Positions 2,561-54,476 are shown, numbered from the stretch's first letter. The stretch is DNA of 64,000 nucleotides from Flectonema sp. DT1601 (GCA_964019425.1 OZ025805.1:62001-126000); one strand, 5' to 3'. The notes: generated from the letters alone by a model not told the origin. Program-made: numbers and translations.

Positions 2561-2717
2561 ATTTCGCAGCAGATGATAAGAACGTTTTTCAATGCGGGAA
2601 TATTTTCCATCGATCTTGCGGATTGCATTCGATGCTGCGGAAACTTTACTCGTTGGATCCCTCGCAAGCAATGGAAAGCAACCATTTTGCAGACAAAAAT
2701 AATGACTAACCCAGAAA

Positions 2718-5700
2718 TGATTTAAATAAGTTAATATTAAAACACCCCGACATCTCACATGACCAAACTGAGATATTAACAGTAGTACTTCAATCTAATC
2801 CGCCATTGACAATTCACAATGTTTACCACCCGCCTGAAATCAAGGCAACAACCTGGAAGTTCAAAACAGAGCCCGGCACATTGATTGCGGGTGACATTAA
2901 TGGACACCATTCAACTTGGTCAAATGGTAATACGAACACCACTGGTAACAGCTTCTACGATTGGTCACTAGAAGCAACAATTAAAATTCTAAATAAACCT
3001 CAACAACACACAAGACCACAAAGCTCAGCTTCTCCGGATGTAATTGCATTAGATATTTCAATAGATGCACAAATCGAACTCATGAAGGGATGGGGCAGCG
3101 ATCACCTGCCACTCAAACTGACAATCGAAGATATCAAAACAGATGAATATTCAAAAGAGAGTTCTGGGACATGGAAATGGAAGTGGCATTGTGCCGATTG
3201 GAATTATTATAAAATATTGTTGGAAAGGGCAGCGCCCAAATTAGAAAGAATTAAGAAGGTGCAGAAACTTGCTAATAGGATCAACAACGAGATTCTGAGA
3301 GCAGCGAGTAGGGCCATCCCAGGCTACAACAAAAAGTCAAGTAGTACCTTCGCTGTGAGGGATTCAGAATTGGAAGATTTAATGGCAGAGACTGACCCTG
3401 ATAAGACAGACTCAGAAGCAATTGAAAGAGGTATCAACATGATCAAACAGAAGATCATTGAGTGCGACATGACTGGAATGGACTACCGATGGGCCTTTAG
3501 AAAAGTTAAACAACTGGAAGGTAGAATGATGGACCATTCAATTACTAAGATTGTCGACGGTGAGAAGGAATTAACCGACTCGCGGGAGATGGCAGATGTC
3601 TTCACCAAAACATACGCAGACCAATTCAAATTCGAAGACGGTGAAACAACCTTACAAGGAATACCTGATGACAACTCGGTGGAATTTGGAATGCCTGAAC
3701 TGGAACGACAAATTTCAAAAACAAAGGAGAAGAAGGCACCTGGACCTGACCACATCTGGAACTCGATGTTAAAACAACTTCCAAAAGCTTTCCTCGAGCA
3801 ACTACTAAGACTATTCAACCTCTCATGGCAACGATCAGCAGTACCCAGGTGCTGGAAAAGTGGAATGGTAATACCCATACTGAAACCTGATAAAGACAAG
3901 AAACAAGTCCTATCGTACAGACCGATAGCACTAACCTCGACCGTCTCGAAACTCTTTGAAAGAATGGTCGTAGAACGGATGCACCACCTGTTGAAAGACA
4001 GAATGAATCCGAGGCAAGCAGCCTACAAACGAGGACGGGATTCCATTGAAAATCTCTGTATAGTTACAGACAAACTCAAAAGTGCCAAGGCAATGGGAGA
4101 AGAAGCGATATTAATCACCTTCGACCTACAAAAAGCCTTCGATGCAGTTCAACCGGTAACTCTTCTAAATAAGATGTCCAAAATAGGACTACCAACGAAA
4201 TATCTACGGTGGGTTCAAAACTACTTGACTAGTAGGAAGATTTCAACAAGGGTGAATGGAGTGAAGGGAGCATTCCGGAACATTCGAGTAGGAGTACCAC
4301 AAGGAAGCGTGCTGGGACCCCAGTTATTCTCTATCTTCATAAATGATTTGATAGATAAACTAGAGATGTACGAACCGACTGTCTTTGCAGATGATGTTGG
4401 AATAGTAATAACCGCGGGCACTGTCAGCTGTTTAGAAAACAAGGTTAACAACGCAGTCAAAATATTTGAAAGGTGGGCACTTGACTCACACATCAAAATC
4501 AATAAGAACCCTGGCAAGACGGAATACATTCACGTGAGGCCAAGTGGAACACATGACAAGTCCCCAGTAGTAGTATACTCTGAAGAACACACATTTAAAT
4601 ATGTGGTGGCCACGGCAGAACAAATGAGTAACCTTGTGAAGGATGATAACTCAACAACTGTAGCTTCAAAAGAAGAATTCGCCATCACTCACCTGTATGT
4701 CGTTCCAAAACATAAGATCAAAGTCAAGCTACCGAACAAACCGGCGGTACTGAAAACAATGAAGATGAGTGCCCGCTTCCCACAACTGAAGAAAGTCCAC
4801 AACAAGGCAGAAATAGATAAGATGCTGGAAAGAGTGGGACCCGGATTACACGGATTTGCCTATGCGGTTGGACGAAAAGTTCACAAGACGAATACCGTGC
4901 GGTATCTAGGCGTACATTATGACGAGAAGTTAACCTTTAAGTCGCAAATTCAAAAGATGATGACAGCTGCTTCCAAGGGTCTAGGCTTGTTGGTTAGACT
5001 CACCAGGATAGGCTGCAGAAAGAGGACACTCATCAGTATACTGGTGACGGTGGTGTTAGCAAGGGTGCTTTATGGTGTTGAAAGCTTTGCTTGGATGCTA
5101 CCAAAAGAGTGCTTCGAACAACTGGAATTACTGGTAAACAGGGCAGTGAGGCTGGTAACTGGATGTCTGCGGAGCACCAAACTACAGAGACTTTACAAAG
5201 AAGCCGATACGCCAAGACTAAAGGAACACATCCAGTATAAGATGTGTAGAACTTATGAACGTTTCAAATTGAGTCCGTTCCTACCGACTCGCAAGCTGAC
5301 GAGAACAGGGAGTTCAGAATTATTTCAAAAATCGAAATGGGGATGGAATGTCTGGATAGACTATGTCTCTGGTGTCCCTGGCCTTGACAACTACCGGAGC
5401 ATTACCAACCTGGAAGTGAACCCAGAACACTACACTGTCCCTCCATGGAAAAGTACTAATGCGATGAAATTCACATATTCACGCAACAAGGAAGAGGCTG
5501 AACAGCGAGAAACTGAATTACCAGCTCACGAGATGAAAGTCTACACTGACGGGTCGATAAGACACAAACCCAACACGTACATGACAGACGCGGCTGCCGC
5601 TGTGGTCATGGTTAACGAAAGCAAGATGCGTCTACTTGGATATAAAATACCAGTAGCGGGTTCCTCTTATAGGACCGAGCAGATTGCAGTGAAACTGGCG

Positions 5701-6686
5701 TTGGAAAATTTAGTTCAGGTGGCGGAGGATGAACATGAATCTCTAACAACAACGACGCACCTGTTGACTGATTCGATGTCAGTCATGCAGGCATTGGAAC
5801 AAGGGCCATATAAACAAAGGTCCCCAATGAACAAAAAGATCTGGAAGTTGGCAATGAAACTGGAGAAGAAGGGAATCCAAGTCAACATGCAGTATGTACC
5901 GGCACACAGAAACGTGCGGTACAACGAAGTAGCGGACCAACTGGCGAAATTCGCTGCAGGCCTGAAGGAAGATCCACCTCACGAAGATGTTATTATTAAA
6001 CAACTGCCCACTCAACTTGACATGGGAACATTGATGACGTTTCACAAGCGGAGAAAACGGGAGAACTGGATCGGACCGGGAGAGGTAAGACACCCTCCGT
6101 ACATCGAAGCTCTAACACGACCAGAGGAAGTACTGATGTCACGCTTTAGAGTGGGACATTGTAGATCTCTGATAATCAAAGGACTGAACGAGCTGTGCTT
6201 TTTCTGTAAACTTGGAAAGGCGACAGCACATCATGTATTATTTATATGCGAACATTGGTGTATAGAAACCTTGAGAGAAAAATACATCAGTCACATGATG
6301 AATGACAAGGGAGAGGAAGCATGCCAACTGGAGGACTGCTACTTACCTGCGAATCAACAGCAGATGACTGGTTTTGTCACAACCTTAGACAGACTGGCAC
6401 AACTATTAGGACGGTAGTATTATTAAAACATCGACATTTCGAATATCAACATTGAAGGCATCATTGCAACACATCTGAAGTCGTCCAAGTGGACAATTAA
6501 TTATGTAGTATTAGTTTTAAGTTATCAAAACAAAGAAAGGAGATACGAAGCCTACGGGATTCCCACCCCCAACCCCCAAAACAAAGAAAGTAAGAAAGAA
6601 AGAAAGAAAAAGAACAGCCGCGCCTAACAGCGCAAACAGCATCACAGACTCACGGGTCGTGGTGCACTCAAAAAAAAAAAAAAAAA
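2718..6686 (+). mobile_element. Non-LTR retrotransposon A (APE-RT-RNase H; I/Ingi-like), 5'-truncated
   Basis: 14-bp TSD GACTAACCCAGAAA at 2704-2717 and 6687-6700; A17 tail at 6670-6686; ORF starts within the APE domain. Confidence 0.93.
2806..6417 (+). CDS. Retrotransposon A polyprotein: partial APE endonuclease, RT, RNase H, C-terminal CCHC
   Basis: APE motifs IAGDINGHH, SPD, GSDHLP; RT motifs YRPIALTS, DLQKAFD, GVPQGSVLGP, FADD, YLGV; RNase H motifs VYTDGS, LTDS, VPAH..NEVADQLAK; CFFC...H...C. Frame is open from about 2719 with no ATG. Confidence 0.93.
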   Translation: MTIHNVYHPPEIKATTWKFKTEPGTLIAGDINGHHSTWSNGNTNTTGNSFYDWSLEATIKILNKPQQHTRPQSSASPDVIALDISIDAQIELMKGWGSDHLPLKLTIEDIKTDEYSKESSGTWKWKWHCADWNYYKILLERAAPKLERIKKVQKLANRINNEILRAASRAIPGYNKKSSSTFAVRDSELEDLMAETDPDKTDSEAIERGINMIKQKIIECDMTGMDYRWAFRKVKQLEGRMMDHSITKIVDGEKELTDSREMADVFTKTYADQFKFEDGETTLQGIPDDNSVEFGMPELERQISKTKEKKAPGPDHIWNSMLKQLPKAFLEQLLRLFNLSWQRSAVPRCWKSGMVIPILKPDKDKKQVLSYRPIALTSTVSKLFERMVVERMHHLLKDRMNPRQAAYKRGRDSIENLCIVTDKLKSAKAMGEEAILITFDLQKAFDAVQPVTLLNKMSKIGLPTKYLRWVQNYLTSRKISTRVNGVKGAFRNIRVGVPQGSVLGPQLFSIFINDLIDKLEMYEPTVFADDVGIVITAGTVSCLENKVNNAVKIFERWALDSHIKINKNPGKTEYIHVRPSGTHDKSPVVVYSEEHTFKYVVATAEQMSNLVKDDNSTTVASKEEFAITHLYVVPKHKIKVKLPNKPAVLKTMKMSARFPQLKKVHNKAEIDKMLERVGPGLHGFAYAVGRKVHKTNTVRYLGVHYDEKLTFKSQIQKMMTAASKGLGLLVRLTRIGCRKRTLISILVTVVLARVLYGVESFAWMLPKECFEQLELLVNRAVRLVTGCLRSTKLQRLYKEADTPRLKEHIQYKMCRTYERFKLSPFLPTRKLTRTGSSELFQKSKWGWNVWIDYVSGVPGLDNYRSITNLEVNPEHYTVPPWKSTNAMKFTYSRNKEEAEQRETELPAHEMKVYTDGSIRHKPNTYMTDAAAAVVMVNESKMRLLGYKIPVAGSSYRTEQIAVKLALENLVQVAEDEHESLTTTTHLLTDSMSVMQALEQGPYKQRSPMNKKIWKLAMKLEKKGIQVNMQYVPAHRNVRYNEVADQLAKFAAGLKEDPPHEDVIIKQLPTQLDMGTLMTFHKRRKRENWIGPGEVRHPPYIEALTRPEEVLMSRFRVGHCRSLIIKGLNELCFFCKLGKATAHHVLFICEHWCIETLREKYISHMMNDKGEEACQLEDCYLPANQQQMTGFVTTLDRLAQLLGR

Positions 6687-6759
6687 GACTAACCCAGAAA
6701 AAACATGCAAACGAGACTATATGAAAAACCCGATCAAATAAATAAATAAAAACCCGATC

Positions 6760-9700
6760 TCTCCTGAGAATTATTAACACTTCCTGGAAGACTTCAAAAG
6801 TACCGTACCAATGGAAACAGGGACTAATCAAGCCCATGTTCAAGGCAGGGAAACCTCGTAATGAACTAAAGAGTTTCAGACCAATAACGCTCACCTCGGT
6901 TGTTGGGAAACTTGCGGAGAGGCTCGTGTATGACCGACTCATGCACTGGCTCACAAAACATTCGTCGCTCAGCCCACTACAGGCTGGATTCAGAAAGGGG
7001 AGAAATACCTGCGAGCAGATCACCGTTCTAGTAGATGCTATCGTAAGGAGCCACATGGAAGAAAAGAGATCAGTGTTCTTGTCATTCGACTTTACTGCTG
7101 CGTTTGACAGGATCAACCATAAGATACTTTTATTAAAATTAGTAAAGATGGGTGTTCCGAATGTTATTATCAGATGGATCACAGACTTTCTTACAAACAG
7201 GAAGGTTAGAGTTGAAGCGAATGGGCATTTTAGCGAATTCCGTACTCTGGCTAAGGGGGTTCCCCAGGGATCGATCCTGGGTCCTCTTCTCTATCTTATC
7301 TACGTTGATGACCTCTGCAAGATTTTGGAACTAGAGAAGGAAACAACGACGTCTGCTCTGTATGCGGATGACACAGCATGTGTGGTGTCAGGATCAAACA
7401 TGGAAGAAGCTCTTTCGAATGCTCAGTTAGTACTCGACAAAGTGGATCAATGGTGTTTTGAAAACGACATGGCCTTATCAGTCTCCAAAACCTGTGCGCT
7501 TAAGATGAATGTTCGCTCGAAGGGCATAGTACTAAACGATACGTGTAATCGCGAACTGCTTTTCTCTAGATCTGTTGAGGAACGCATGCTTAAACTTGAC
7601 TATGGTGACATCGAGAAGCATATCAATCTCAAATCACCCAGACCCATGCTTCAAAGTGGCGAAACTATTCTTGAAATTGGAGGAATCCCAATCAAGACAC
7701 AAGAAGAACTCGACAACTTGATGCTGCAATACGTCGTTCGTGAGGACAGCATTATGGTTGTGAGAGCAATATTCAAAACTGCCTTTCTGTTACCGATAGT
7801 CGACTCAGTAAAATACCTCGGGGTTCACATCGACGACAGGCTCACCTTCCACAAACAAGTAGGCAAGATTCACGAAGAATTAAAGAGGGGGATATCACTT
7901 CTGCAGTGCCTCCAGCCGTACGAACTGGACTACAAGACTCTTAACATGGTTAAGAACCTTTATGTAACCGCGAGAATCTCGTATGCGCTTGACAGTTTTG
8001 GTTGGCTGATAAGCAGCAGCGTTGACAGCATCGACTTCGAACTGAGGAAGGTCGCCAGACTGGTTACTGGATGCAGCAAGTGTACGCCAAGAGAGTTACT
8101 GTTGTGGGAGTCTGACATGTATCCTTTTAAACGTCAGATTGAAAAGCAGACAAAAATTGCGTACTACCGGTATAAAGCCATGACTTGGATACCTAATACA
8201 AACAGACTCGCCTCAACACAAAGCTACTGGGCTGGCCTAATCCCTGGCACTGATAGTCAGCGTGAAAGCCAGTGCCTTGTGCAGCCTGACTCGATGGAAC
8301 CCTGGGTATCTCCGACGAACCTTAGGATTAGCAACAGCTGCGGATTTCCGAAGTCCGCGAACCCTGCGGTGGACAAAGAAAAGTTCATGTCGTACATTGG
8401 AACGTTGCCTCCTGTCGACATGGTAATCAACTGCGATGGCTCCTACTCTGCTTCCGGCGCGGCCGGTGCGGCTCATATTGCCAAGTCACGTAGCGGCCTT
8501 CGATCTGCTTACGCGTCTAGGCTTTATCAAGCTGACTGCAGCTACAGGGCTGAACAACATGCTCTGAAGAACGCGGCTAGACATCTGAGAACAGTGTTTA
8601 GCAAAGATCGTTCAATGAAATCTGTGAGGATATTCACGGACTCAAAATCCCTTCTGGATGAACTGCTGGGTGGAAGGTGCAGACAGAGGAATACCGAGTC
8701 CCTCAAGATACTGGAATACCTGCGCATGTGTGAGATGAAAGTGCATTTGCAATTCATCCCCTCGCACATTGGAATCGAGTTTCACGATGAAGTTGACGCG
8801 CTTGCAAAGGAAGCAGCGCACAACAAGAACATCCGACCTGTGCTAGTCAAAGGCACGTACTTCTCGCGATCATCACATGTGAAGCGCTGCATCAAAAAGG
8901 ATCTGCTTAACGTGAGTGGTTACACCTGCTACAAACACCTCATCAGAGGCCGTTCAGTTAAATACCCTCCTGGGATGGAAAGAGCCGACGAGATACGGAT
9001 AGCGAACTTCCGGACAGGATGTCACCCGCTAATTCAGAACTGGCGCAAGACGATCGACTGCCCATTTTGTGGCGAACCGTCCTCACAGGTTCACCTGCTG
9101 CAGGGATGTCAATCTCCCAAACTCGACTCTGCCAGGTTCAAAATCCTGGGCTTCTCAACACTGACCGGCAAGTGGGATCGCGATCGAGAACTTATTATTG
9201 CCAACGAAATTCCTAACCTTGAAGCTCTCTTCACTTTGGCGTGGCTTCCATCACTCGCGTTGATCATAAGGTGGATGGAACAAACATCTAACCTTAGACT
9301 TTGGAAGTAAAGTAGGTGACATGTAGTCGCCAATATCAATTTGTTATTATTTTTAGTATTTTCATCATTATCAATCATCTCCTGGTTGGGTAACTGCACA
9401 TCACCTTCGGTGTTGTCGCAGTGTCTCATCCAACACTCCTGTCTCCTTTTTCTCCTATTCTCCTTATAAATTTCTCTTGAGGGCAGGCCTTCGGGCTGTT
9501 CAAGTGGTCTTTGACCACCGCTCTAGTTATATGCTCGACTCTTTGTTTTCCTTATCGATGGTAGGAATGGTAACCGAATTAGCTTCGTGTGTCCAATTTC
9601 AAGGACGCGTGACCATTTATTTTTTCCGTTGCCGCTCTTCTTACGTCCTCAGGCGGAGCCTACCTATGTTTCCCGTGTTTTCCAATTTGTCAGACTTAAG

Positions 9701-9800
9701 TCAAAAAGAAAGTATAAAAGAAAGACAAAACATAGAAGTGAAAAGAACAAAAAACAAAGAGTTTGGTAGCACAGACGAGTGTAACCAAAAAAAAAAAAAA
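6760..9800 (+). mobile_element. Non-LTR retrotransposon B (RT-RNase H; I/Ingi-like), 5'-truncated
   Basis: TSD AAAAACCCGATC at 6748-6759 and 9796-9807 (overlaps poly(A) 9787-9800). Coding frame begins at 6761 (LLRIINTSW...); ~475-nt 3' UTR. Confidence 0.92.
6761..9310 (+). CDS. Retrotransposon B RT-RNase H-CCHC ORF (N-terminally truncated)
   Basis: FRPITLTS, DFTAAFD, GVPQGSILGP, YADD, KYLGV; RNase H motifs NCDGS, FTDSKS, IPSHIG..DEVDALAK; CPFC...H...C. Confidence 0.92.
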   Translation, partial: LLRIINTSWKTSKVPYQWKQGLIKPMFKAGKPRNELKSFRPITLTSVVGKLAERLVYDRLMHWLTKHSSLSPLQAGFRKGRNTCEQITVLVDAIVRSHMEEKRSVFLSFDFTAAFDRINHKILLLKLVKMGVPNVIIRWITDFLTNRKVRVEANGHFSEFRTLAKGVPQGSILGPLLYLIYVDDLCKILELEKETTTSALYADDTACVVSGSNMEEALSNAQLVLDKVDQWCFENDMALSVSKTCALKMNVRSKGIVLNDTCNRELLFSRSVEERMLKLDYGDIEKHINLKSPRPMLQSGETILEIGGIPIKTQEELDNLMLQYVVREDSIMVVRAIFKTAFLLPIVDSVKYLGVHIDDRLTFHKQVGKIHEELKRGISLLQCLQPYELDYKTLNMVKNLYVTARISYALDSFGWLISSSVDSIDFELRKVARLVTGCSKCTPRELLLWESDMYPFKRQIEKQTKIAYYRYKAMTWIPNTNRLASTQSYWAGLIPGTDSQRESQCLVQPDSMEPWVSPTNLRISNSCGFPKSANPAVDKEKFMSYIGTLPPVDMVINCDGSYSASGAAGAAHIAKSRSGLRSAYASRLYQADCSYRAEQHALKNAARHLRTVFSKDRSMKSVRIFTDSKSLLDELLGGRCRQRNTESLKILEYLRMCEMKVHLQFIPSHIGIEFHDEVDALAKEAAHNKNIRPVLVKGTYFSRSSHVKRCIKKDLLNVSGYTCYKHLIRGRSVKYPPGMERADEIRIANFRTGCHPLIQNWRKTIDCPFCGEPSSQVHLLQGCQSPKLDSARFKILGFSTLTGKWDRDRELIIANEIPNLEALFTLAWLPSLALIIRWMEQTSNLRLWK

Positions 9801-9816
9801 CCCGATCCGGCCAGGC

Positions 9817-9888
9817 GGCGGCTTAGCTCAGTGGTAGAGCATTGGTCTTGTAAACCAAGGGTCGAGAGTTCGATCCTCTCAGTCGCCT
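9817..9888 (+). tRNA. trnT-UGU: tRNA-Thr(UGU)
   Basis: Cloverleaf: acceptor GGCGGCT/AGTCGCC, D arm GCTC/GAGC, anticodon arm TTGGT-CT-TGT-AA-ACCAA, T arm GAGAG-TTCGATC-CTCTC. Confidence 0.97.
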
Positions 9889-9893
9889 TTTTT
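9888..9893 (+). terminator. RNA polymerase III oligo(T) terminator
   Basis: T6 run directly after the tRNA acceptor stem. Confidence 0.8.
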
Positions 9894-10623
9894 CCTTTAG
9901 AAGGAGTACTTATTTTTGACTCTGCCCACTTTTCTTGCTACGACTTTAAAGGAGCGATTGTTATTTTTATTTCTCGGTGGCAAATTACCTAAATGGAATT
10001 TGAATACTTCCCTAAGTTTTGTCTTTACTTTCATTCTTAACTTATACTTCTTTCTCACATATAGTGATGAAAGTGAACCTCCTAAACATAACCCAGCAGT
10101 GAGTCTGACTTGTGTCAAGGATCAAGAGATCAAAGGCACGTGGTCAGATTTGATTACTTGTACCGATCTCGGTAAGTTCTTAATGATAATCATTTTTTTC
10201 AAAAAAAAATTTCCGCACTATTATATAAATACAGAAAAGAACATCATCATATTTATCAGACTCCCAATCAAGCATCAGACATTCACAGTTCAGGTCCACA
10301 CCATAGACTTACCATCTCAAGTAGTAACATTTCAGATATGTTAACCTGTTGAAAAACACAAAATAATGGTTCAGAAAACATGTCTTTTCTCAGCTAAATT
10401 ACAAACTGATTTCTCTACACTTTCCTTCTTTATTTAACTTTCACCAACACTGAAATGTTTGTGCCAAAACTAAGGGCTCCAAATAGAGCTGATAAAAGAA
10501 GAAAACCAGTTAATCATCCTCCCTAATGATGGGTGACTTATTTGTTTCCGCTGAATATCATTTCTTTCATATCAACAATGCGTACAATGCCGACGTAAGT
10601 CGCAACATCGGGAAACTGAATTT

Positions 10624-35355: not shown

Positions 35356-36655
35356 CACATATTCAAAAAACTTTCATTCCGTTTTGAGAAGACAACGAAT
35401 ACAAATATAATTGAGCCTTTTTGATTTTGTTCAGTAATTCCTGAGGGGGGTGAAGTATAATGGGAGGGTTAAAGAACCACTTGCAATGGGGGCTTGGCGC
35501 TGTTAGTCAGAAAATCAGAAAACGTTTTTTGCTATTTCGAAGTCGCCTCAGTAATACTCCGCGTTATTGATCCCTGACATATTGTTGTGGTATTTGATGC
35601 TTGGTAAGTAGGAGGGTTAGGTTTTTTTTTTTTTTTTTTTTTTACATATTCAAAAAACTTTCATTCCTTTTTGAGAAGAGAGGGAAAAAGAAGAAACCAT
35701 TCAGATCAACCTTATATTTCGTTGAACGCAGACAAAAATCCTATCGCACGGGAATATATATCATGATGACCATAAGAAATACCGGTTCTCAATCTGAATA
35801 GTTTAGTTATTTTAGTTAGCAAAATACAAACTGATGACTACGAGGGGTCTGGGTAGCCCGCATCAGTAAGGACCCAATCGCGAAAATTGTAGTTTCATAG
35901 TATTGGCTGGAAGTGATCGACTTCCAGCCTCCACCTTGCCCAGAGGCTAACAGGTTGTAAACAACTAAAGAAAATAAAAGAGAAATTTTCTGGGGTGAAG
36001 GTGAAAAAAAAAATAAAAAATCTTCTTTCTTTCATATAAAAATAATAATAATGAAATAAACAGTTCGAATGCTGCGTGATCTCTGTAGCCAATCGTGTCG
36101 TATCGTCACTTAAAGTGAGTACCGACAAACTAAAGAAGAAAAGCTTTATAAAAACCGATAAAAAACCAATATTTTTTTTTCCCCTTCTTCTTTGGAGGAA
36201 ACAAACGGGAAAGGGAAAAAGTGGGGCGGTAAATTATTCCTTTAATTATCAAGTTGGGAGAAAGAAAAACAATTTCAATTTCTGAAAGCAGCCGCCATCA
36301 ATACAATTCCCACCCTGAAAAGGAGTGAGGCAATACCGCCGTAAGAAAGGCCAAAGAAAGATATTCTTTGACCGTAGTTGAAGTGGGAGAACAAAAAAAA
36401 AAAAAATAATAATTCGGCAAAAAACTTCACTTTTTACTTTCGTACTAACGCTTTTATTTTGGTTGCGCAACCACAGGTACAAAAATCCTAATAAAGAAAT
36501 AGGTTAGTTACGCTGTACAACAAAAAAAAAATAAAAAAATAGAGGAGGCCGAGTACTACATGTCTAATCAATTACTGCTTACTGATGAATCAGAGAAAAC
36601 ACTTTCACTTTGAGGTTTAGGCCACCTGGTGCGTTATCGTCATCGTCAAGATCAA

Positions 36656-36791
36656 TATTTTTTTTTTTTTTTTTTTTTTCTGGTTACACTCCTGGGTGCA
36701 ACCATCTTCTTTGTTCATTGTTGTTTTCACTTCAATGTTTGCCTTTCTTTTTCACTTTCTTCTGGTAAAAGTCTGACAAGAACCAAGGGAA
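36656..36791 (-). mobile_element. Short 5'-truncated retrocopy related to the 3' end of retrotransposon B
   Basis: Absent from units 2-4. Ends GAGTGTAACCAG + poly(A); aligns by eye with 9687-9800. Confidence 0.85.
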
Positions 36792-37502
36792 CAACATCCG
36801 GAGGATCGGTATTCTTTTCCCCTTTTTTTTTCATATAATCATGTACCGCCATTAATATAAGCGTGCATAAAGAGAGAGGAGGGATCGAACAAACAATAAC
36901 AACGGGAGTCATATTTCCTGTACGCCACCGCTCCCTTGGTGGTGATGGTGGTGATGGTGGTGATGCTGTAATGTCAGGCACCCCAACAAATGAAAGGCCT
37001 AGAAATATCGTGGGAATTACCTTACTTAGATCGGCAGTGAACTCGTCAGATTTCATGGTATTCCCTTCAAGTTGAATTCTCCATCCTAATGGTGACTCAA
37101 GAACATATCCAGTGTGAGAGTTGATTGCTGTTCCTTCACAAGTGAAACACTTTCCAATTTTCCATGTTGAACCATTATTTAGTGCTCTGCATATTTCTAA
37201 GCACTTGGGAAGAGATACGAAGTCCTTTGAGAGCTCGTTCACAATAATTGAAAGTTTAGACTTCACATCTTCCAAAGGGATGTGCGATACGTAAACAGAT
37301 AACAATACAGTTCGAGGTGTTTGTATACTCGCTAGGGGTTCTCCATCTGTCGGTGTTTGGTAGTTAACAAAATTATATTTTTTTAAAATAAAAAAAAAAT
37401 ATATATACCAAAGGGAGTATCTTTATGCATTTCCGCTTCTTCATTTAGACCCAACCCCACCGACAATATCGCAAACAGGACTACTGCATGTGTGTAGATC
37501 AT
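36727..37502 (-). CDS. Array gene copy 1: type-I membrane protein, C-terminus replaced by a retro-insertion
   Basis: Exon 1 from ATG 37502 (MIYTHAVVLFAILSVGLG signal peptide), intron 37408-37347, TM VVIVCSIPPLSLCTLILMAV; extra SPP repeats. Confidence 0.7.
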
Positions 37503-39049
37503 TACTGACTGAAATGAGAATGAATAATTTGAAACTGACTATAATGCTGTCGAATAGGAGGGTTTAACTGTTCGAGTTTGTACGTAAAATACAAATGTAT
37601 TGTATCATAAACAACATAACGATAATTTAACATTAGTTCTGAGAGACAGTTGACTAAAGGTAATGTTAGTCTAATTTATTAAATCACATATGTGCTGTTG
37701 AATAGGGTGGGGTGGGTTATGGAGGTTTAAATTGACAATAATTACTGACTACATAACAAGATGCTTTTCCGGTATACCAAAAAAAAATCTAAAATTGTAC
37801 AAAAAAAAAAAAAAGAATTGGCTTTAACTTCAACTATACAGAAAATAATGATATAACACTGTGATTTTTTGTTTGCACGAAACCGGATAATTGAGCCTTT
37901 TTGATTTTGTTCAGTAATTCCTGAGGGGGGTGAAGTATAATGGGAGGGTTAAAGAACCACTTGCAATGGGGGCTTGGCGCTGTTAGTCAGAAAATCAGAA
38001 AACGTTTTTTGCTATTTCGAAGTCGCCTCAGTAATACTCCGCGTTATTGATCCCTGACATATTGTTGTGGTATTTGATGCTTGGTAAGTAGGAGGGTTAG
38101 GTTTTTTTTTTTTTTTTTTTTTTTACATATTCAAAAAACTTTCATTCCTTTTTGAGAAGAGAGGGAAAAAGAAGAAACCATTCAGATCAACCTTATATTT
38201 CGTTGAACGCAGACAAAAATCCTGTCGCACGGGAATATATATCATGATGACCATAAGAAATACCGGTTCTCAATCTGAATAGTTTAGTTATTTTAGTTAG
38301 CAAAATACAAACTGATGACTACGAGGGGTCTGGGTAGCCCGCATCAGTAAGGACCCAATCGCGAAAATTGTAGTTTCATAGTATTGGCTGGAAGTGATCG
38401 ACTTCCAGCCTCCACCTTGCCCAGAGGCTAACAGGTTGTAAACAACTAAAGAAAATAAAAGAGAAATTTTCTGGGGTGAAGGTGAAAAAAAAAATAAAAA
38501 ATCTTCTTTCTTTCATATAAAAATAATAATAATGAAATAAACAGTTCGAATGCTGCGTGATCTCTGTAGCCAATCGTGTCGTATCGTCACTTAAAGTGAG
38601 TACCGACAAACTAAAGAAGAAAAGCTTTATAAAAACTGATAAAAAACCAATATTTTTTTTTTCCCCTTCTTCTTTGGAGGAAACAAACGGGAAAGGGAAA
38701 AGTGGGGCGGTAAATTTGTCCTTTAATTATCAAGTTGGGAGAAAGAAAAACAATTTCAATTTCTGAAAGCAGCCGCCATCAATACAATTCCCACCCTGAA
38801 AAGGAGTGAGGCAATACCGCCGTAAGAAAGGCCAAAGAAAGATATTCTTTGACCGTAGTTGAAGTGGGAGAACAAAAAAAAAAAAATAATAATTCGGCAA
38901 AAAACTTCACTTTTTACTTTCGTACTAACGCTTTTATTTTGTTTGCGCAACCACAGGTACAAAAATCCTAATAAAGAAATAGGTTAGTTACGCTGTACAA
39001 CAAAAAAAAAAATAAAAAAAATAGAGGAGGCCGAGTACTACATGTCTAA

Positions 39050-39840
39050 TCAATTACTGCTTACTGATGAATCAGAGAAAACATAAACATCAGGCTGACT
39101 TTCACTTCGAGGTTTAGCCCACTTGTCAGGTGCGTTATCGTCATCGTCAAGATCAACATCCGGAGGATCGGTATTCTTTTCCCCTTTTTTTTTCATATAC
39201 TTATGTACCGCCATTAATATAAGCCCGCATAAACTGAGACCAGGGATCGAACAAACAATAACAACGGGAGTCATATTTCCTGTAGGCCACTCCCTTGGTG
39301 ATGCTGTAATGTCAGGTACCCCACCAAATGAAAGGCCTAGAAATATCGTGGGAATTACCTTACTTAGATCGGCAGTGAACTCGTCAGATTTCATGGTATT
39401 CCCTTCAAGTTGAATTCTCCATCCTAATAGTGACTCAAGAACATATCCAGTGTGAGAGTTGATTGTTGTTCCTTCACAAGTGAAACAGTTTCCAAATTTC
39501 CATGTTGAACCATTATTTAGTGCTCTGCATATTTCTAAGCACTTGGGAAGAGATACGAAGTCCTTTGAGAGCTCGTTCACAATAATTGAAAGTTTAGACT
39601 TCACATCTTCCAAAGGGATGTGCAATACGTAAACAGATAACAATACAGTTCGAGGTGTTTGTATACTCGCTGGGGGTTCTCCATCTGTCGGTGTTTGGTA
39701 GTTAACAAAATTATATTTTTTTAAAATAAAAAAAAAATATATATACCAAAGGGAGTATCTTTATGCATTTCCGCTTCTTCATTTAGACCCAACCCCACCG
39801 ACAATATCGCAAACAGGACTACTGCATGTGTGTAGATCAT
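39050..39840 (-). CDS. Array gene copy 2: signal peptide + single-TM protein, unknown function
   Basis: Same two-exon structure; acidic cytoplasmic tail (DVDLDDDDNAPD). Confidence 0.75.
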
Positions 39841-41387
39841 TACTGACTGAAATGAGAATGAATAATTTGAAACTGACTATAATGCTGTCGAATAGGAGGG
39901 TTTAACTGTTCGAGTTTGTACGTAAAATACAAATGTATTGTATCATAAACAACATAACGATAATTTAACATTAGTTCTGAGAGACAGTTGACTAAAGGTA
40001 ATGTTAGTCTAATTTATTAAATCACATATGTGCTGTTGAATAGGGTGGGGTGGGTTATGGAGGTTTAAATTGACAATAATTACTGACTACATAACAAGAT
40101 GCTTTTCCGGTATACCAAAAAAAAATCTAAAATTGTACAAAAAAAAAAAAAAGAATTGGCTTTAACTTCAACTATACAGAAAATAATGATATAACACTGT
40201 GATTTTTTGTTTGCACGAAACCGGATAATTGAGCCTTTTTGATTTTGTTCAGTAATTCCTGAGGGGGGTGAAGTATAATGGGAGGGTTAAAGAACCACTT
40301 GCAATGGGGGCTTGGCGCTGTTAGTCAGAAAATCAGAAAACGTTTTTTGCTATTTCGAAGTCGCCTCAGTAATACTCCGCGTTATTGATCCCTGACATAT
40401 TGTTGTGGTATTTGATGCTTGGTAAGTAGGAGGGTTAGGTTTTTTTTTTTTTTTTTTTTTTTACATATTCAAAAAACTTTCATTCCTTTTTGAGAAGAGA
40501 GGGAAAAAGAAGAAACCATTCAGATCAACCTTATATTTCGTTGAACGCAGACAAAAATCCTGTCGCACGGGAATATATATCATGATGACCATAAGAAATA
40601 CCGGTTCTCAATCTGAATAGTTTAGTTATTTTAGTTAGCAAAATACAAACTGATGACTACGAGGGGTCTGGGTAGCCCGCATCAGTAAGGACCCAATCGC
40701 GAAAATTGTAGTTTCATAGTATTGGCTGGAAGTGATCGACTTCCAGCCTCCACCTTGCCCAGAGGCTAACAGGTTGTAAACAACTAAAGAAAATAAAAGA
40801 GAAATTTTCTGGGGTGAAGGTGAAAAAAAAAATAAAAAATCTTCTTTCTTTCATATAAAAATAATAATAATGAAATAAACAGTTCGAATGCTGCGTGATC
40901 TCTGTAGCCAATCGTGTCGTATCGTCACTTAAAGTGAGTACCGACAAACTAAAGAAGAAAAGCTTTATAAAAACTGATAAAAAACCAATATTTTTTTTTT
41001 CCCCTTCTTCTTTGGAGGAAACAAACGGGAAAGGGAAAAGTGGGGCGGTAAATTTGTCCTTTAATTATCAAGTTGGGAGAAAGAAAAACAATTTCAATTT
41101 CTGAAAGCAGCCGCCATCAATACAATTCCCACCCTGAAAAGGAGTGAGGCAATACCGCCGTAAGAAAGGCCAAAGAAAGATATTCTTTGACCGTAGTTGA
41201 AGTGGGAGAACAAAAAAAAAAAAATAATAATTCGGCAAAAAACTTCACTTTTTACTTTCGTACTAACGCTTTTATTTTGTTTGCGCAACCACAGGTACAA
41301 AAATCCTAATAAAGAAATAGGTTAGTTACGCTGTACAACAAAAAAAAAAATAAAAAAAATAGAGGAGGCCGAGTACTACATGTCTAA

Positions 41388-42178
41388 TCAATTACTGCTT
41401 ACTGATGAATCAGAGAAAACATAAACATCAGGCTGACTTTCACTTCGAGGTTTAGCCCACTTGTCAGGTGCGTTATCGTCATCGTCAAGATCAACATCCG
41501 GAGGATCGGTATTCTTTTCCCCTTTTTTTTTCATATACTTATGTACCGCCATTAATATAAGCCCGCATAAACTGAGACCAGGGATCGAACAAACAATAAC
41601 AACGGGAGTCATATTTCCTGTAGGCCACTCCCTTGGTGATGCTGTAATGTCAGGTACCCCACCAAATGAAAGGCCTAGAAATATCGTGGGAATTACCTTA
41701 CTTAGATCGGCAGTGAACTCGTCAGATTTCATGGTATTCCCTTCAAGTTGAATTCTCCATCCTAATAGTGACTCAAGAACATATCCAGTGTGAGAGTTGA
41801 TTGTTGTTCCTTCACAAGTGAAACAGTTTCCAAATTTCCATGTTGAACCATTATTTAGTGCTCTGCATATTTCTAAGCACTTGGGAAGAGATACGAAGTC
41901 CTTTGAGAGCTCGTTCACAATAATTGAAAGTTTAGACTTCACATCTTCCAAAGGGATGTGCAATACGTAAACAGATAACAATACAGTTCGAGGTGTTTGT
42001 ATACTCGCTGGGGGTTCTCCATCTGTCGGTGTTTGGTAGTTAACAAAATTATATTTTTTTAAAATAAAAAAAAAATATATATACCAAAGGGAGTATCTTT
42101 ATGCATTTCCGCTTCTTCATTTAGACCCAACCCCACCGACAATATCGCAAACAGGACTACTGCATGTGTGTAGATCAT
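41388..42178 (-). CDS. Array gene copy 3
   Basis: Protein identical to copy 2 in the ORF track. Confidence 0.75.
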
Positions 42179-43725
42179 TACTGACTGAAATGAGAATGAA
42201 TAATTTGAAACTGACTATAATGCTGTCGAATAGGAGGGTTTAACTGTTCGAGTTTGTACGTAAAATACAAATGTATTGTATCATAAACAACATAACGATA
42301 ATTTAACATTAGTTCTGAGAGACAGTTGACTAAAGGTAATGTTAGTCTAATTTATTAAATCACATATGTGCTGTTGAATAGGGTGGGGTGGGTTATGGAG
42401 GTTTAAATTGACAATAATTACTGACTACATAACAAGATGCTTTTCCGGTATACCAAAAAAAAATCTAAAATTGTACAAAAAAAAAAAAAAGAATTGGCTT
42501 TAACTTCAACTATACAGAAAATAATGATATAACACTGTGATTTTTTGTTTGCACGAAACCGGATAATTGAGCCTTTTTGATTTTGTTCAGTAATTCCTGA
42601 GGGGGGTGAAGTATAATGGGAGGGTTAAAGAACCACTTGCAATGGGGGCTTGGCGCTGTTAGTCAGAAAATCAGAAAACGTTTTTTGCTATTTCGAAGTC
42701 GCCTCAGTAATACTCCGCGTTATTGATCCCTGACATATTGTTGTGGTATTTGATGCTTGGTAAGTAGGAGGGTTAGGTTTTTTTTTTTTTTTTTTTTTTT
42801 ACATATTCAAAAAACTTTCATTCCTTTTTGAGAAGAGAGGGAAAAAGAAGAAACCATTCAGATCAACCTTATATTTCGTTGAACGCAGACAAAAATCCTG
42901 TCGCACGGGAATATATATCATGATGACCATAAGAAATACCGGTTCTCAATCTGAATAGTTTAGTTATTTTAGTTAGCAAAATACAAACTGATGACTACGA
43001 GGGGTCTGGGTAGCCCGCATCAGTAAGGACCCAATCGCGAAAATTGTAGTTTCATAGTATTGGCTGGAAGTGATCGACTTCCAGCCTCCACCTTGCCCAG
43101 AGGCTAACAGGTTGTAAACAACTAAAGAAAATAAAAGAGAAATTTTCTGGGGTGAAGGTGAAAAAAAAAATAAAAAATCTTCTTTCTTTCATATAAAAAT
43201 AATAATAATGAAATAAACAGTTCGAATGCTGCGTGATCTCTGTAGCCAATCGTGTCGTATCGTCACTTAAAGTGAGTACCGACAAACTAAAGAAGAAAAG
43301 CTTTATAAAAACTGATAAAAAACCAATATTTTTTTTTTCCCCTTCTTCTTTGGAGGAAACAAACGGGAAAGGGAAAAGTGGGGCGGTAAATTTGTCCTTT
43401 AATTATCAAGTTGGGAGAAAGAAAAACAATTTCAATTTCTGAAAGCAGCCGCCATCAATACAATTCCCACCCTGAAAAGGAGTGAGGCAATACCGCCGTA
43501 AGAAAGGCCAAAGAAAGATATTCTTTGACCGTAGTTGAAGTGGGAGAACAAAAAAAAAAAAATAATAATTCGGCAAAAAACTTCACTTTTTACTTTCGTA
43601 CTAACGCTTTTATTTTGTTTGCGCAACCACAGGTACAAAAATCCTAATAAAGAAATAGGTTAGTTACGCTGTACAACAAAAAAAAAAATAAAAAAAATAG
43701 AGGAGGCCGAGTACTACATGTCTAA

Positions 43726-44518
43726 TCAATTACTGCTTACTGATGAATCAGAGAAAACATAAACATCAGGCTGACTTTCACTTCGAGGTTTAGCCCACTT
43801 GTCAGGTGCGTTATCGTCATCGTCAAGATCAACATCCGGAGGATCGGTATTCTTTTCCCCTTTTTTTTTCATATACTTATGTACCGCCATTAATATAAGC
43901 CCGCATAAACTGAGACCAGGGATCGAACAAACAATAACAACGGGAGTCATATTTCCTGTAGGCCACTCCCTTGGTGATGCTGTAATGTCAGGTACCCCAC
44001 CAAATGAAAGGCCTAGAAATATCGTGGGAATTACCTTACTTAGATCGGCAGTGAACTCGTCAGATTTCATGGTATTCCCTTCAAGTTGAATTCTCCATCC
44101 TAATAGTGACTCAAGAACATATCCAGTGTGAGAGTTGATTGCTGTTCTTTCACAAGTGAAACAGTTTCCAATTTTCCATGTTGAACCATTATTTAGTGCT
44201 CTGCATATTTCTAAGCACTTGGGAAGAGATACGAAGTCCTTTGAGAGCTCGTTCACAATAATTGAAAGTTTAGACTTCACATCTTTCAAAGGGATGTGCA
44301 ATACGTAAACAGATAACAATACAGTTCGAGGTGTTTGTATACTCGCTGGGGGTTCTCCATCTGTCGGTGTTTGGTAGTTAACAAAATTATATTTTTTTAA
44401 AATAAAAAAAAAATATATATATACCAAAGGGAGTATCTTTATGCATTTCCGCTTCTTCATTTAGACCCAACCCCACCGACAATATCGCAAACAGGACTAC
44501 TGCATGTGTGTAGATCAT
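43726..44518 (-). CDS. Array gene copy 4
   Basis: A few substitutions versus copies 2-3 and a 2-nt longer intron. Confidence 0.75.
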
Positions 44519-44840
44519 TACTGACTGAAATGAGAATGAATAATTTGAAACTGACTATAATGCTGTCGAATAGGAGGGTTTAACTGTTCGAGTTTGTACG
44601 TAAAATACAAATGTATTGTATCATAAACAACATAACGATAATTTAACATTAGTTCTGAGAGACAGTTGACTAAAGGTAATGTTAGTCTAATTTATTAAAT
44701 CACATATGTGCTGTTGAATAGGGTGGGGTGGGTTATGGAGGTTTAAATTGACAATAATTACTGACTACATAACAAGATGCTTTTCCGGTATACCAAAAAA
44801 AAATCTAAAATTGTACAAAAAAAAAAAAAAAAAAAAAAAT

Positions 44841-46694: not shown

Positions 46695-47411
46695 TTATCC
46701 TGAATGATCAATCGCTGCTTTCACAGACTTCACAAAGAGAGCGCTATTACTTTCAGGCAGCTGCACAGATTCAAGAGCGTAGCATTTACTGAGAAAGCGA
46801 TCACCAATAGTGGTGATACTACTAAGACTTGAAAGGTCAAGAGAAGTGATTTGTTCACAAAAAACATAAGAAACAATGCCAATAGTGGTGACACTACTAA
46901 GACCTGAAAGGTCAAGAGAAGTGATTTGTACACAGAAATATAAGAAACGATTACTTATAGTGGTGACACCATTAAGACCTGAAAAGTCAAGAGTAATTTG
47001 TGAACAACGAGACAAGAATCTATCTCCAATAGTAGTAACTAGTGAGATGTGTTGTTGGAATTTGAATTGCGGAAAGCAATCAGTTTGGCATCTGAAGGAA
47101 GCAGCTCACCGTCAACAGTGAGGCAACCATCTTCTGTGAATGTCGGAGTGTCCAGATATAAGTACTCCGTAATGTGGTCTCTCATCCAAAGAAGCAGCTT
47201 CTCCCGTTTTGCATCATCAACAAACCAGCTTTTACTGAATATCCTAAACTGCTTCTTCCACATTTCCAACTCGCTGTTTGCAACCACTCCATGATCTGCC
47301 AGCCGATCAGTTTCGCAAAGGGTATCACCAGCAAATGAGAGTTCAACTTCATCCGGATCGACATCCCACTCCCCAGCTGCCGCCGTCAACACGTCGCTTA
47401 CAACTGAATCA
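46695..47411 (-). pseudogene. Ubiquitin-like + 25-aa LRR gene, 5'-truncated and frameshifted
   Basis: Paralogue of the 54285 gene. 4-bp deletion near 47049 splits ORFs 47039-47551 and 46695-47015; homology stops at about 47411. Confidence 0.85.
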
Positions 47412-47624
47412 CATCTAATTCCGCACAAAGCTCTGCCATTTCTTTTTGTCTTTTTTTTTCTGGAAAAAGAAAAATATCTCCAAAAATCCGTCGTTATGAT
47501 GCTCTTTTCCTTGCAAGTCAATTGTTCTGCAGGTTCACTTCTATCTGCCACCAGTCACTACTTACCAACTATGAACCAAACCTCCTCTGACGCTGAGCCT
47601 GCCTCAAATGCGTCAGTCACTAGC

Positions 47625-47722
47625 ATGCCTTCGGTCATCTCATCAATCGGTGATGACTTCCTGTTAGTATGTAACTCTCTCTCGAACTATATTGACTTGT
47701 CAGGTCTTGTCAATACGGTAAG
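47625..47722 (+). pseudogene. Inverted LRR relic
   Basis: SVISSIGDDFLLVCNSLSNYIDLSGLVNTVS; matches the fragment at 2410-2440. Confidence 0.5.
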
Positions 47723-48893
47723 TCGCTTTACATTACTTATATGAACCTGAGAAAGAAGTATATGTTAAGATTGAAGGCAAAGACAAACACCAGAATTGTA
47801 TCCAACAAAAGAAATATCTACACTGTGAAGGGGTGCAGATTACTTCTGCGTAAGGGGTTATGTTTTAAAGTAGTAGTTGGAGGAAGAGGAGTGGGAGCAG
47901 AGTCTGAAAAAGGGAAAAATTAAACTAAAGGAAAGAAACGTTCTTTATCTACCCCAAGGGGATTTCACCGCAGGAGGAGACTTAACCGAGAAAGATATTT
48001 AGAAAGCTTTGATTCTGACCAGTCAGGATTGATCAGTGCATCTACTATAGAAAGGTCGTCTATAACAATATTTAAGTCGGTAGTTTTATATGAAATATCA
48101 ATAACTTCCATAACATGGTTCTTCACATCAGAGCGCAGAAGTGAGAAACTTGTCTTCCTTTCGATCTGCGCGATTAGTTTCTTCCTCACAAAAACACTCC
48201 GAAATGATGAAAATTTCTCCGAAAAAGGAAAACTCCCGCACATCCCTCCTGAGCAAGGAAATCCTTTATGTAAGGAAAAGATAATCAAAAACAAAAACAA
48301 GCAAGAAAAAACTGAAAGAGTAGGAAGATAGAATAGCAGATACCATATCTCGAATAGGGAATGGGGGATCCATTTGTGTCACATTCGTGTGCTTGTTGTG
48401 TTTAATATAAAACTCTCAAAACTACTTTATAAACTGACAATCTGTTATTCTTGTCCTTTCCACGATTCCAGTTTCACAAGTTCACAAAAGTATTATTTTT
48501 TTTTCGTTTAATTTTTCAATTGTTTCTTTCCGCAGAAATAAATATAACAAAAAACAAAACTTTAAAATTTAATTCACCACTTTATCCTGAATGATCAATC
48601 GCTGCATTCACAGACTCCTCAAAGAGAGCGCTATTACTTTCAGGCAGCGGCACAGATTCAAGATCGTTGCATTCACTGAGAAAGAGATCACCAATAGTAG
48701 TGACTCTACTAAGACTTGAAAGGTCAAGAGAAGTGATTTGTGAACAGTGAGGCAAGAAACAATTACCAATATTTGTGACACTACTAAAACCAGAAAAGTC
48801 AAGAGAAGTGATTTGTTCACAGTAAAATAAGAAATAATAGTGGTGACACTACTAAGACTTGAAAGGTCAAGAATAGGAATTCGTGAACAGTCA

Positions 48894-49591
48894 AAAAAAA
48901 TTAACCAGTGTTTAGGGTTTTGAATCCCATGGATCCCGTCGCTCAGGCGGTCCGGTGGAGAACCGGGTAGGGCACTGTGAACGAGTTGCGGTCCAGGTGG
49001 CGTCGGAAGGCCACCGCACCAACAGATTTGTTTCTTCGCACAACAGTAGCTTGGAGACCGTAAGAGACCCAAGGTGGTTCACAACCGCTCGAACAACTGC
49101 GTGTGAAGGAACAAGATTGAAAAGAAAAGAATATAAGAAAAGAAATGCCACACACAAAAAACGACGTAGTAAAGCAGAGAGGTAGGGGGAGGGATGGCCT
49201 CTTTCTCCACACATTGCATGGGAGCTCCCCGAGTAACTCAAGGGGCTGATACTGTTAATACATTTCAGGCGACCTGAACTTATAATCCCCCCATGCGTGA
49301 AAAGACTAAACGGGGGAAGTTTGAAGGAAATGGGGGTAAAGGGAAATCATGCCACTAAGGAAAAAATAAAAACCCGGTGGCCCCTGTGAGCTCTGGGTGC
49401 CTGAGTATCCCGGGCCGGATCACCTGACCTTCTGCTATGTTGTCCTTTTTTTTTAAAGGTTAGGCTACCGGAAAATAAAACGGGGGTAAAAGAATACACA
49501 GCAACAACAACAATACGTCAGCACTCTAGTTACACACAAGGTGCATCCAGGTAACACCACGAGGAGGCGCGCTATCCGAGTTTCGTTACCC
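48894..49591 (-). mobile_element. Non-autonomous ~698-bp retroposon X, copy 2
   Basis: About 99% identical to 52879-53573. Flanked by TGACTGTTCACAAATTACTA (49592-49611) and a 2-mismatch copy (48874-48893); 3' T-tract. Confidence 0.9.
49520..49591 (-). ncRNA. HDV-like self-cleaving ribozyme (5' end of X copy 2)
   Basis: Manual fold identical to 53502-53573. Confidence 0.8.
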
Positions 49592-49911
49592 TAGTAATTT
49601 GTGAACAGTCAGACAAGAAATCATCACCAATAGTGGTGATACTACTAAGACTTGAATGGTCAAGAGAAGTGATTTGTTCATAGAAATATAAAAAGAAATT
49701 CTCAATAGTGGTGACACTACTAAGACCTGAAAGGTCAAGAATAGTAATTTGTAAACAGTTAGACAAGAAACCATCACCAATAGTGGTGACACTACTAAGA
49801 CATGAAAGGTCAAGAATTGTAATTTTTGAACAGTAAGACAAGAAATAATTCCCAATAGTTGTGACACTACTAAGACCTGAAAGGTCAAGAATAGTAATTT
49901 GTAAACAGTTA

Positions 49912-52708: not shown

Positions 52709-52878
52709 TAGTAATTTGTGAACAGTCAGACAAGAAATCATCACCAATAGTGGTGACACTACTAAGACCTGAAAAGTCAAGAGAAGTGATTTTTTCACAG
52801 GATAACAGGAAATAATACCCAATAGTGGTGACGCTACTAAGACTTGAAAGGTCAAGAATAGTAATTTGTGAACAGTCA

Positions 52879-53573
52879 AAATTAACCAGTGTTTAGGGTT
52901 TTGAATCCCATGGATCCCGTCGCTCAGGCGGTCCGATGGAGAACCGGGTAGGGCACTGTGAACGAGTTGCGGTCCAGGTGGCGTCGGAAGGCCACCGCAC
53001 CAACAGATTTGTTTCTTCGCACAACAGTAGCTTGGAGACCGTAAGAGACCCAAGGTGGTTCACAACCGCTCGAACAACCGCGTGTGAAGGAACAAGATTG
53101 AAAAGAAAAGAATATAAGAAAAGAAATGCCACACACAAAAAACGACGTAGTAAAGCAGAGAGGTAGGGGGAGGGATGGCCTCTTTCTCCACACATTGCAT
53201 GGGAGCTCCCCGAGTAACTCGCGGGGCTGATACTGTTAATACATTTCAGGCGACCTGAACTTATAATCCCCCCATGCGTGAAAAGACTAAACGGGGGAAG
53301 TTTGAAGGAAATGGGGGTAAAGGGAAATCATGCCACTAAGGAAAAAATAAAAACCCGGTGGCCCCTGTGAGCTCTGGGTGCCTGAGTATCCCGGGCCGGA
53401 TCACCTGACCTTCTGCTATGTTGTCCTTTTTTTTTTAAAGGTTAGGCTACCGGAAAATAAAACGGGGGTAAAAGAATACACAGCAACAACAACAATACGT
53501 CAGCACTCTAGTTACACACAAGGTGCATCCAGGTAACACCACGAGGAGGCGCGCTATCCGAGTTTCGTTACCC
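52879..53573 (-). mobile_element. Non-autonomous 695-bp retroposon X, copy 1
   Basis: Perfect 20-bp TSD TGACTGTTCACAAATTACTA (plus-strand 53574-53593 and 52859-52878); no credible ORF. Confidence 0.92.
53502..53573 (-). ncRNA. HDV-like self-cleaving ribozyme (5' end of X copy 1)
   Basis: P1 GGGUAAC/GUUACCU (G1-U wobble), P2 AGCGC/GUGCU, P3 GCC/GGU, L3 UCCUCGU, P1.1 CC/GG, P4 AUGCAC/GUGUGU, J4/2 AAC-UAGA containing the putative catalytic C. Confidence 0.82.
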
Positions 53574-54476
53574 TAGTAATTTGTGAACAGTCAGACAAGA
53601 AATCATCACCAATAGTGGTGACACTACTAAGACCTGAAAAGTCAAGAGAAGTGATTTGTGAACAGTAATGCAAGAAATAATTCCCAATAGTGGTGACACT
53701 ACTAAGACTTGAAAGGTCTAGAGAAGTGATTTGTTTACAGCTTGACAAGAAATTATCACCAATAGTGGTGACACTACTAAGACCTGGAAGGTCAAGAATA
53801 GTAATTTGTGAACAACGAGACAAGAATCTATCTCCAATAGTAGTAACTAGTGAGATGTCTGTGTTGTTGGGATTTGAATTGCGGAAAGCAATCTGTTTGG
53901 CATCTGAAGGAAGCAGCTCACCGTCAACAGTGAGGCAACCATCTGCTGTGAATGTCGGAATGTCCAGATATAAGTACTCCGTAATGTGGTCTCTCATCCA
54001 AAGAAGCAGCTTCTCCCGTTTTGCATCATCAACAAACCAGCTTTTACCGAATATCCTGAACTACTTCTTCCACATTTCAAACTCGCTGTTTGCAACCACT
54101 CCATGATCTGCCAGCCGATCAGTTTCGCAAAGGGTATCACCAGCAAACGAGAGTTCAACTTCATCCGGATCGACATCCCACTCCTCAGCCGCCACCGTCA
54201 ACACGTCGATCACAACTGAATCAGTACCAGCCGTCACTGTCACTGCGGGGAGTCCCCAATCCGGACACGTCACAAAAACTTGCATTGTTGGTTTTTTTTT
54301 ATAATATATTTGCTGTGTTAATGGGGGAATGCCTGAAAACCAAAAAAGAGATTAGAAAAAAAAAATTGAACTCCAATAAGAAATATTCAAAAAAATACAT
54401 TGTTTTTTGTATAATATGAACAATGAAAAAAAAAAGGAAAACTCTCGTCTATTTAAAAATAAATCGTAAATCACAT

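Follow-up and report, generated by a model that had tools for sequence, protein, structure and literature searches.

Two LINE copies lie directly before a tRNA gene in a 64,000-nucleotide stretch of DNA from Flectonema sp. DT1601 (the window), which raises the question of whether the tRNA gene drew them there. Within 60 bp before tRNA-Thr(TGT), two young 5′-truncated LINE copies of different families, elements A and B, are found together with a tiny insert. Direct reading bore out what an earlier note had described here at all coordinates, namely two LINEs and a micro-insert stacked before tRNA-Thr, with a third copy of B's 12-mer beside a bare (AAAT)3 (Table 1).

Table 1. Features of the tRNA-Thr(TGT) locus and the B-related fragment, in window coordinates
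Feature	Position	Strand	Remarks
5′ copy of element A duplication	2704..2717	+	8-14 bp, preceded by AAT
Element A, 5′-truncated LINE	2718..6686	+	single open frame, 3′ UTR, 17-A tail
3′ copy of element A duplication	6687..6700	+	
Original flank, 23 bp	6701..6723	+	TxTATG at its end, abutting B nick
12-mer, first copy	6724..6735	+	
(AAAT)3 micro-insert	6736..6747	+	origin inferred
12-mer, second copy = 5′ duplication of B	6748..6759	+	
Element B, 5′-truncated LINE	6760..9795	+	RT-RNase H-Cys/His motif, 3′ UTR, A tail
12-mer, third copy = 3′ duplication of B	9796..9807	+	
tRNA-Thr(TGT), 9817-9888, with T-run terminator	9817..9893	+	ARAGORN, Rfam
B-related 3′ fragment	36656..36791	-	~136 bp, 79% identical to 3′ UTR of B, A tail

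The 14-mer duplicated around element A, GACTAACCCAGAAA, is confined to 2704 and 6687 (two copies per 64 kb, both strands), with 0.0003 extra copies expected in the window. Likewise, the 12-mer duplicated around element B, AAAAACCCGATC, is restricted to 6724, 6748 and 9796 (0.005 extra copies expected). The A duplication is 8-14 bp long and may be 12 bp; the range arises because its last 6 bp, 2712-2717, also match element A (microhomology). The B duplication has a range of 7-12 bp because it begins with an A-run. tRNA-Thr(TGT) is the sole tRNA of the window according to ARAGORN and the sole Rfam match at gathering score (71.3 bits). The B duplication lies 9 bp before it and, in the reconstructed empty allele, the A duplication 44 bp before it, in agreement with the distances given previously. 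The first-strand nicks are located 21 bp (B) and 58 bp (A) upstream of the gene. A and B had also been described as co-oriented with the tRNA and opposite to host genes. They are the only + strand ORFs of at least 200 aa, 2 of the 19 in the window. In six public runs, only the element bodies were covered, with no read across any junction or empty site, and no RNA run was present among nine public runs listed as matching.

Both flanks of tRNA-Thr resemble decayed LRR-type gene remnants, and such a patch likely tolerates insertions. A host start codon beside the A site (ORF 2350-2685, - strand) was rejected: the ORF shows no Pfam hit and weak LRR-like similarity only. RPB5, encoded nearby, shares 95% identity with a protein of Flectonema neradi and 62% with that of Diplonema papillatum, which makes the host a diplonemid.

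Element A carries one frame, open to its stop, which ends at 6417 and encodes part of an APE domain, RT, RNase H (Pfam) and a Cys/His motif; as compared to a full-length relative, the first ~71 codons are missing. It shares 98% identity with a 1305-aa protein from a cluster of 91 members. Element B starts just before RT, at aa 405 of P0089. Its frame, with RT and RNase H (Pfam), is open to the stop and ends at 9310, and it is 94% identical to a protein cluster of 101 members. The listed members number 15 of the 91 in the A family and 15 of the 101 in the B family. The element A protein equals full-length P0217 (0 of 1232 aa different), and for the element B protein the closest among 14 listed members is 6 of 849 aa away, with no residue private to B. 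Between A and B, identity is only 27-28%, and further related families have 26-74 members. A, B and related families (91, 101, 31 and 37 members) are scattered over many contigs; contigs common to several listed cluster members are sparse. Judged from these sequences, A and B are both young copies of multi-copy families.

The domain content points to the known elements that A and B resemble. APE, RT and RNase H were found in one ORF (Pfam; A and B of the window, full-length P0217 and P0223), RNase H reaching 27 bits in element B and not being listed for P0223. A 2A peptide, GDVERNPGP, is present at aa 14, directly before APE, in the B-family proteins P0223, P0232 and P0235. The A-family proteins that were inspected, annotated as beginning at APE, have none. 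According to the available text of PMC3708506, L1Tc and Ingi have a 2A peptide directly before APE. The 12-bp duplication that characterizes the ingi/L1Tc clade falls within the ranges of B (7-12 bp) and A (8-14 bp). A quick tree built from the RT of 75 proteins joined the groups of A and B in one clade with D. papillatum proteins (SH-aLRT 99). Within this clade, 5 of the 15 listed members of a D. papillatum cluster are named L1Tc or Tbingi protein; no trypanosomatid sequence appeared among the 20 RT-tree clusters looked up for names. A and B are thus ingi/L1Tc-like in sequence, and membership in the clade is likely; the I/Ingi-like identity proposed earlier was right in kind and is narrowed to ingi/L1Tc-like by domains, 2A peptide and RT tree. 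A PDB search returned L1, R2 and RNase H structures only, and an Atlas search returned unnamed APE-RT-RNase H clusters.

We then compared the nick sites with those of the clade. L1Tc is preceded by GAxxAxGaxxxxxtxTATG^A, as given in the part of PMC5814959 that was available. At the B nick, 6 of 6 positions of the core TxTATG^A agree, as they do at 39 of 127,960 window positions in the background; on the full pattern this nick scores 7 of 11, which 1.3% of window positions reach. The A nick is one base off ATG^A, and the nick of the B-related fragment falls after ATG; both score 6 of 11 on the full pattern. ATG at -3 to -1 of the nick, found for B and the B-related fragment, has a background of 1.5%. 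This comparison covers three sites. New here are the exact match of the B nick to the L1Tc core and the cuts of A and of the B-related fragment at or beside ATG. The L1Tc-like motif in a diplonemid element suggests that the endonuclease preference is old in the ingi clade.

Duplications of 12 bp are described for the ingi clade, with tandem elements common and separated by one duplication (available text of PMC3820030). The simplest account of the triple 12-mer is that one preferred nick was hit twice, as is known for the clade. Since the B nick corresponds to the L1Tc core and A and the B-related fragment are cut at or beside ATG, using one nick again is what ingi elements are known to do. 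The earlier note had overlooked that such re-use, with the 12-bp duplication repeated, is normal for the ingi clade, and also the match to the L1Tc motif. As for (AAAT)3, it probably stems from an abortive insertion of a tail only at the B nick, or else from the joining of B's 5′ end as a by-product. That it would come, with the extra 12-mer, from a slip in this joining or from an assembly error seems unlikely to us. Such an origin would agree with (AAAT)3 abutting the 5′ end of B, with none of the three observed element tails being made of AAAT repeats, and with the absence of a bridging read from the public runs examined. However, a perfect third 12-mer is the expected product of a second nick at one site, as in the ingi tandems of PMC3820030 (available text), and T is present in one B-related tail.

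Two further B-type sequences bear on the role of the tRNA. The B-related fragment at 36656 has no tRNA near it (ARAGORN), as had been noted before. Its duplication is of about 3 bp, and sister copies of the tandem unit that holds it show the empty site; the ORF containing it, a putative CDS, has no Pfam hit. Its subfamily is a different one, and so short a duplication is atypical. A second B copy, with 0 substitutions, 1 gap and a different 3′ flank, was found in the public run X4. This flank reads G1 G2..T8 G9 G10 T11 starting 16 nt past the A-run, in the same register as tRNA-Thr here, with 13 nt of the putative tRNA visible and the pattern spotted post hoc. In the background, G1-T8-R9-G10-Y11 occurs at that offset at 299 of 127,942 positions (0.23%), and within 2 nt at 1.2%. 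A viral scan for the X4 tRNA-like start gave 23 loci, none of which is a tRNA, and neither the X4 start nor the phrase 'upstream of tRNA' had a match in the D. papillatum supplements (text, seven files). Metagenomes scanned for the 3′ end of B yielded a single chance hit, the unrelated locus L001, which has no tRNA. The loose 5′ end of the X4 copy resembled a second target with an ending like that of the B duplication, but was rejected as such: it ends in GATC joined at TTAA, a ligation junction. Three of the four X4 internal breakpoints fall in GATC, GANTC or TTAA sites, as compared to 7.7% of B positions. We take these to be the enzyme sites of a Hi-C-type library.

Does the nick motif suffice to explain the place of A and B? 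The 1,429-bp intergenic patch contains 18 ATG^A sites, and the two used are the only ones less than 70 bp upstream of the tRNA. If sites were drawn evenly, the two nearest the tRNA would be picked among the 18 in about 1% of cases. Other sites of the patch agree better with the full L1Tc pattern (8-9 of 11) and were left unused. The motif is too weak to account for where A and B lie. The same observations, along with the tRNA-like start in equal register next to the X4 copy of B, argue against a hot spot set by sequence only, where good ATG^A motifs would lie in a dispensable patch and the adjoining tRNA would be a coincidence. In favor of such a hot spot, the intergenic patch contains 2 perfect L1Tc cores and the B site is among them, the tRNA-Thr flanks have the appearance of decayed genes, re-use of one nick in tandem is known from ingi elements (PMC3820030, available text), and the B-related fragment has ATG at its nick away from tRNAs. 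The A and B nick sites also have ATGA..AACCC in common and are its only two exact matches window-wide, but this motif was defined post hoc. On balance, we hold a hot spot of this kind to be rather unlikely.

At the other extreme, the two families might each have evolved a separate tether to a Pol III factor and an insertion distance that does not vary (about 9 and 44 bp), with B arriving after A. The distances do resemble those of NLTR-A (2-6 bp) and of TRE5 and NLTR-B (39-64 bp), A and B share just 27-28% identity, and the X4 copy is followed by a tRNA-like start in the same register. However, the nicks fall at a sequence motif, the ORF1 that tethers TRE5-A is absent, and A seems no older than B, so that this strict form strikes us as quite improbable. 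Since A and B belong to one RT clade (SH-aLRT 99 in the quick tree), independent origins of a tRNA habit are not needed. The earlier note had argued for independent targeting with A inserted first. An ancestral habit of the diplonemid clade fits equally well, and the order of insertion finds no support in the divergence from listed relatives (0 of 1232 aa for A, 6 of 849 aa for B). As for targeting itself, the proposal stays plausible: the X4 copy lends it weak support, and the sole other B-related insertion in the window, far from any tRNA, speaks against it, as do the decayed look of the tRNA-Thr flanks and the large size and wide contig spread of the families. With evidence from one locus and a 13-nt hint, the locus being picked from very many windows, which favours coincidences, we lean slightly towards tRNA-linked targeting by the A and B families. 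That the two ATG^A sites were used owing to an ATG-type nick motif combined with a likely preference for DNA before tRNA genes is a reading about evenly balanced between true and false. A tRNA habit, if there is one, is probably common to the clade rather than evolved twice.

Under this combined reading of motif and tRNA preference, a single polyprotein would nick at ATG^A, and reverse transcription would be target-primed from the A tail and end early, leaving 5′-truncated copies. The endonuclease may have cut the B site twice, a tail-only insert arriving first and then B. The choice among motifs would be biased to 20-60 bp before the tRNA gene by open DNA or by contact with a Pol III factor, a bias to which we give equal chances of being real or not. 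Because there is no ORF1, any tether would reside in the single polyprotein. In its complete form, the proposal is that diplonemid ingi/L1Tc LINEs without ORF1 home upstream of tRNA genes, tails toward the gene, with family-specific nicks at about -21 and -58 bp laid over an ancient TATG^A preference. We put this forward tentatively, at slightly less than even confidence. Overall, part of the stack is known behaviour of the clade, and the tRNA link is likely.

Targeting of tRNA genes by non-LTR elements is described for dictyostelids (available text of PMC5006619 and PMC5911963). A literature search that included few subscription papers found no report of it in diplonemids or in the ingi clade. 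If true, the link would represent another origin of the safe-harbour strategy, in Euglenozoa, a lineage with polycistronic genes. It would also mean targeting by single-ORF elements without the ORF1 tether of TRE5, and in the other orientation. If not true, what is seen here is a hot spot of the usual ingi type. The families are intact and young, with about 90-100 protein members each, so that the targeting rule is testable by genome analysis.

Several known systems can be set beside the stack. The D. papillatum genome has many retroelements and 211 tRNA genes, and the available part of PMC10161547 presents no rigorous TE analysis. Neither that of bioRxiv 10.64898/2026.07.29.740908 nor that of PMC12278014 makes a tRNA link. 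A and B resemble ingi/L1Tc (Tbingi, L1Tc), as far as PMC5814959, PMC3820030, PMC3708506 and PMC12278014 were available, in the single APE-RT-RNase H ORF, the A tail, the 2A peptide before APE (B family), a duplication compatible with 12 bp, the TATG^A nick motif at the B site and a probable tandem insertion at one nick. In contrast to the trypanosomatid elements, their host is a diplonemid. The 5′ end of ingi/L1Tc bears a 77-nt signature (Pr77: promoter, HDV-like ribozyme); here both A and B are 5′-truncated. Trypanosomatid ingi elements are depicted as only relatively site-specific, and the available text of PMC5814959, PMC3820030 and PMC12278014 mentions no tRNA link for them; both points weigh against targeting.

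The closest parallels in position come from dictyostelids. NLTR-A of Dictyostelium purpureum inserts 2-6 bp upstream of tRNA genes, and for NLTR-B of Polysphondylium pallidum this distance is 39-64 bp (PMC5006619, available text). Like A and B, these are RNase H-bearing non-LTR elements, at distances close to 9 and 44 bp. They differ in having two or three ORFs and, in that source, in standing outside the known RNase H clades; their targeting rests on many copies, that of A and B on one locus. TRE5-A of Dictyostelium discoideum, in the part of PMC5911963 that was available, is an APE-type LINE found about 44-54 bp upstream of tRNA genes, and A and B share with it the APE-type organization and a similar distance before the tRNA. 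Yet TRE5-A is without RNase H, its ORF1 binds TFIIIB and it is inserted opposite to the tRNA. In contrast, the long-frame proteins of the A and B families show no ORF1, and the B-family frame starts with 2A-APE. A and B also contain RNase H and are co-oriented with the tRNA, the tail pointing toward it. The A/B stack is not a TRE5.

The two nick sites at which elements A and B, the 5'-truncated LINEs upstream of tRNA-Thr, were inserted share the sequence ATGA..AACCC (2702-2712 and 6721-6731), these being its sole exact matches in the window. The 23-bp spacer between the 3' duplication of element A and the first 12-mer of the B site could itself be the remnant of an older insertion. The two flanks of the tRNA, 2411-2485 and 9913-10076, match adjoining pieces of 47642-47911. 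This sequence similarity suggests that tRNA-Thr lies between two copies of a single repeat or gene, both of them decayed.

The fragment related to the 3' UTR of element B sits in the first of four tandem units, the ORF of which is without Pfam match. In this unit, the B-box-like motif GTTCGATCCC precedes the nick of the fragment by about 95 bp. No tRNA fold was found at this motif in the tandem units, and nine B-box-like matches of this kind occur across the window. The motif is likely a chance match.

Features of the tandem units and of the 75-bp repeat region
Feature	Position	Strand	Description
Tandem units (four)	35400-44840		2,338 bp, near-identical
B-box-like GTTCGATCCC	36890, 39252, 41590, 43928	-	in the tandem units
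75-bp-unit arrays	46695-54060	-	read as 25-aa leucine-rich repeats
Inserts of ~700 bp (two)	about 48890-49590, 52870-53575		near-identical, within the array; by eye
Third RT element	49984-52707	-	5'-truncated; 907-aa open frame, RVT_1 match

Several insertions interrupt the 75-bp arrays. One is the third RT element, unrelated to elements A and B, which has the orientation of the host genes and lies far from the tRNA. Both ~700-bp inserts start, as judged by eye, with the telomere-like TTTAGGGTTTT. Also by eye, the leucine-rich repeats encoded by the arrays are presumably BspA-like.
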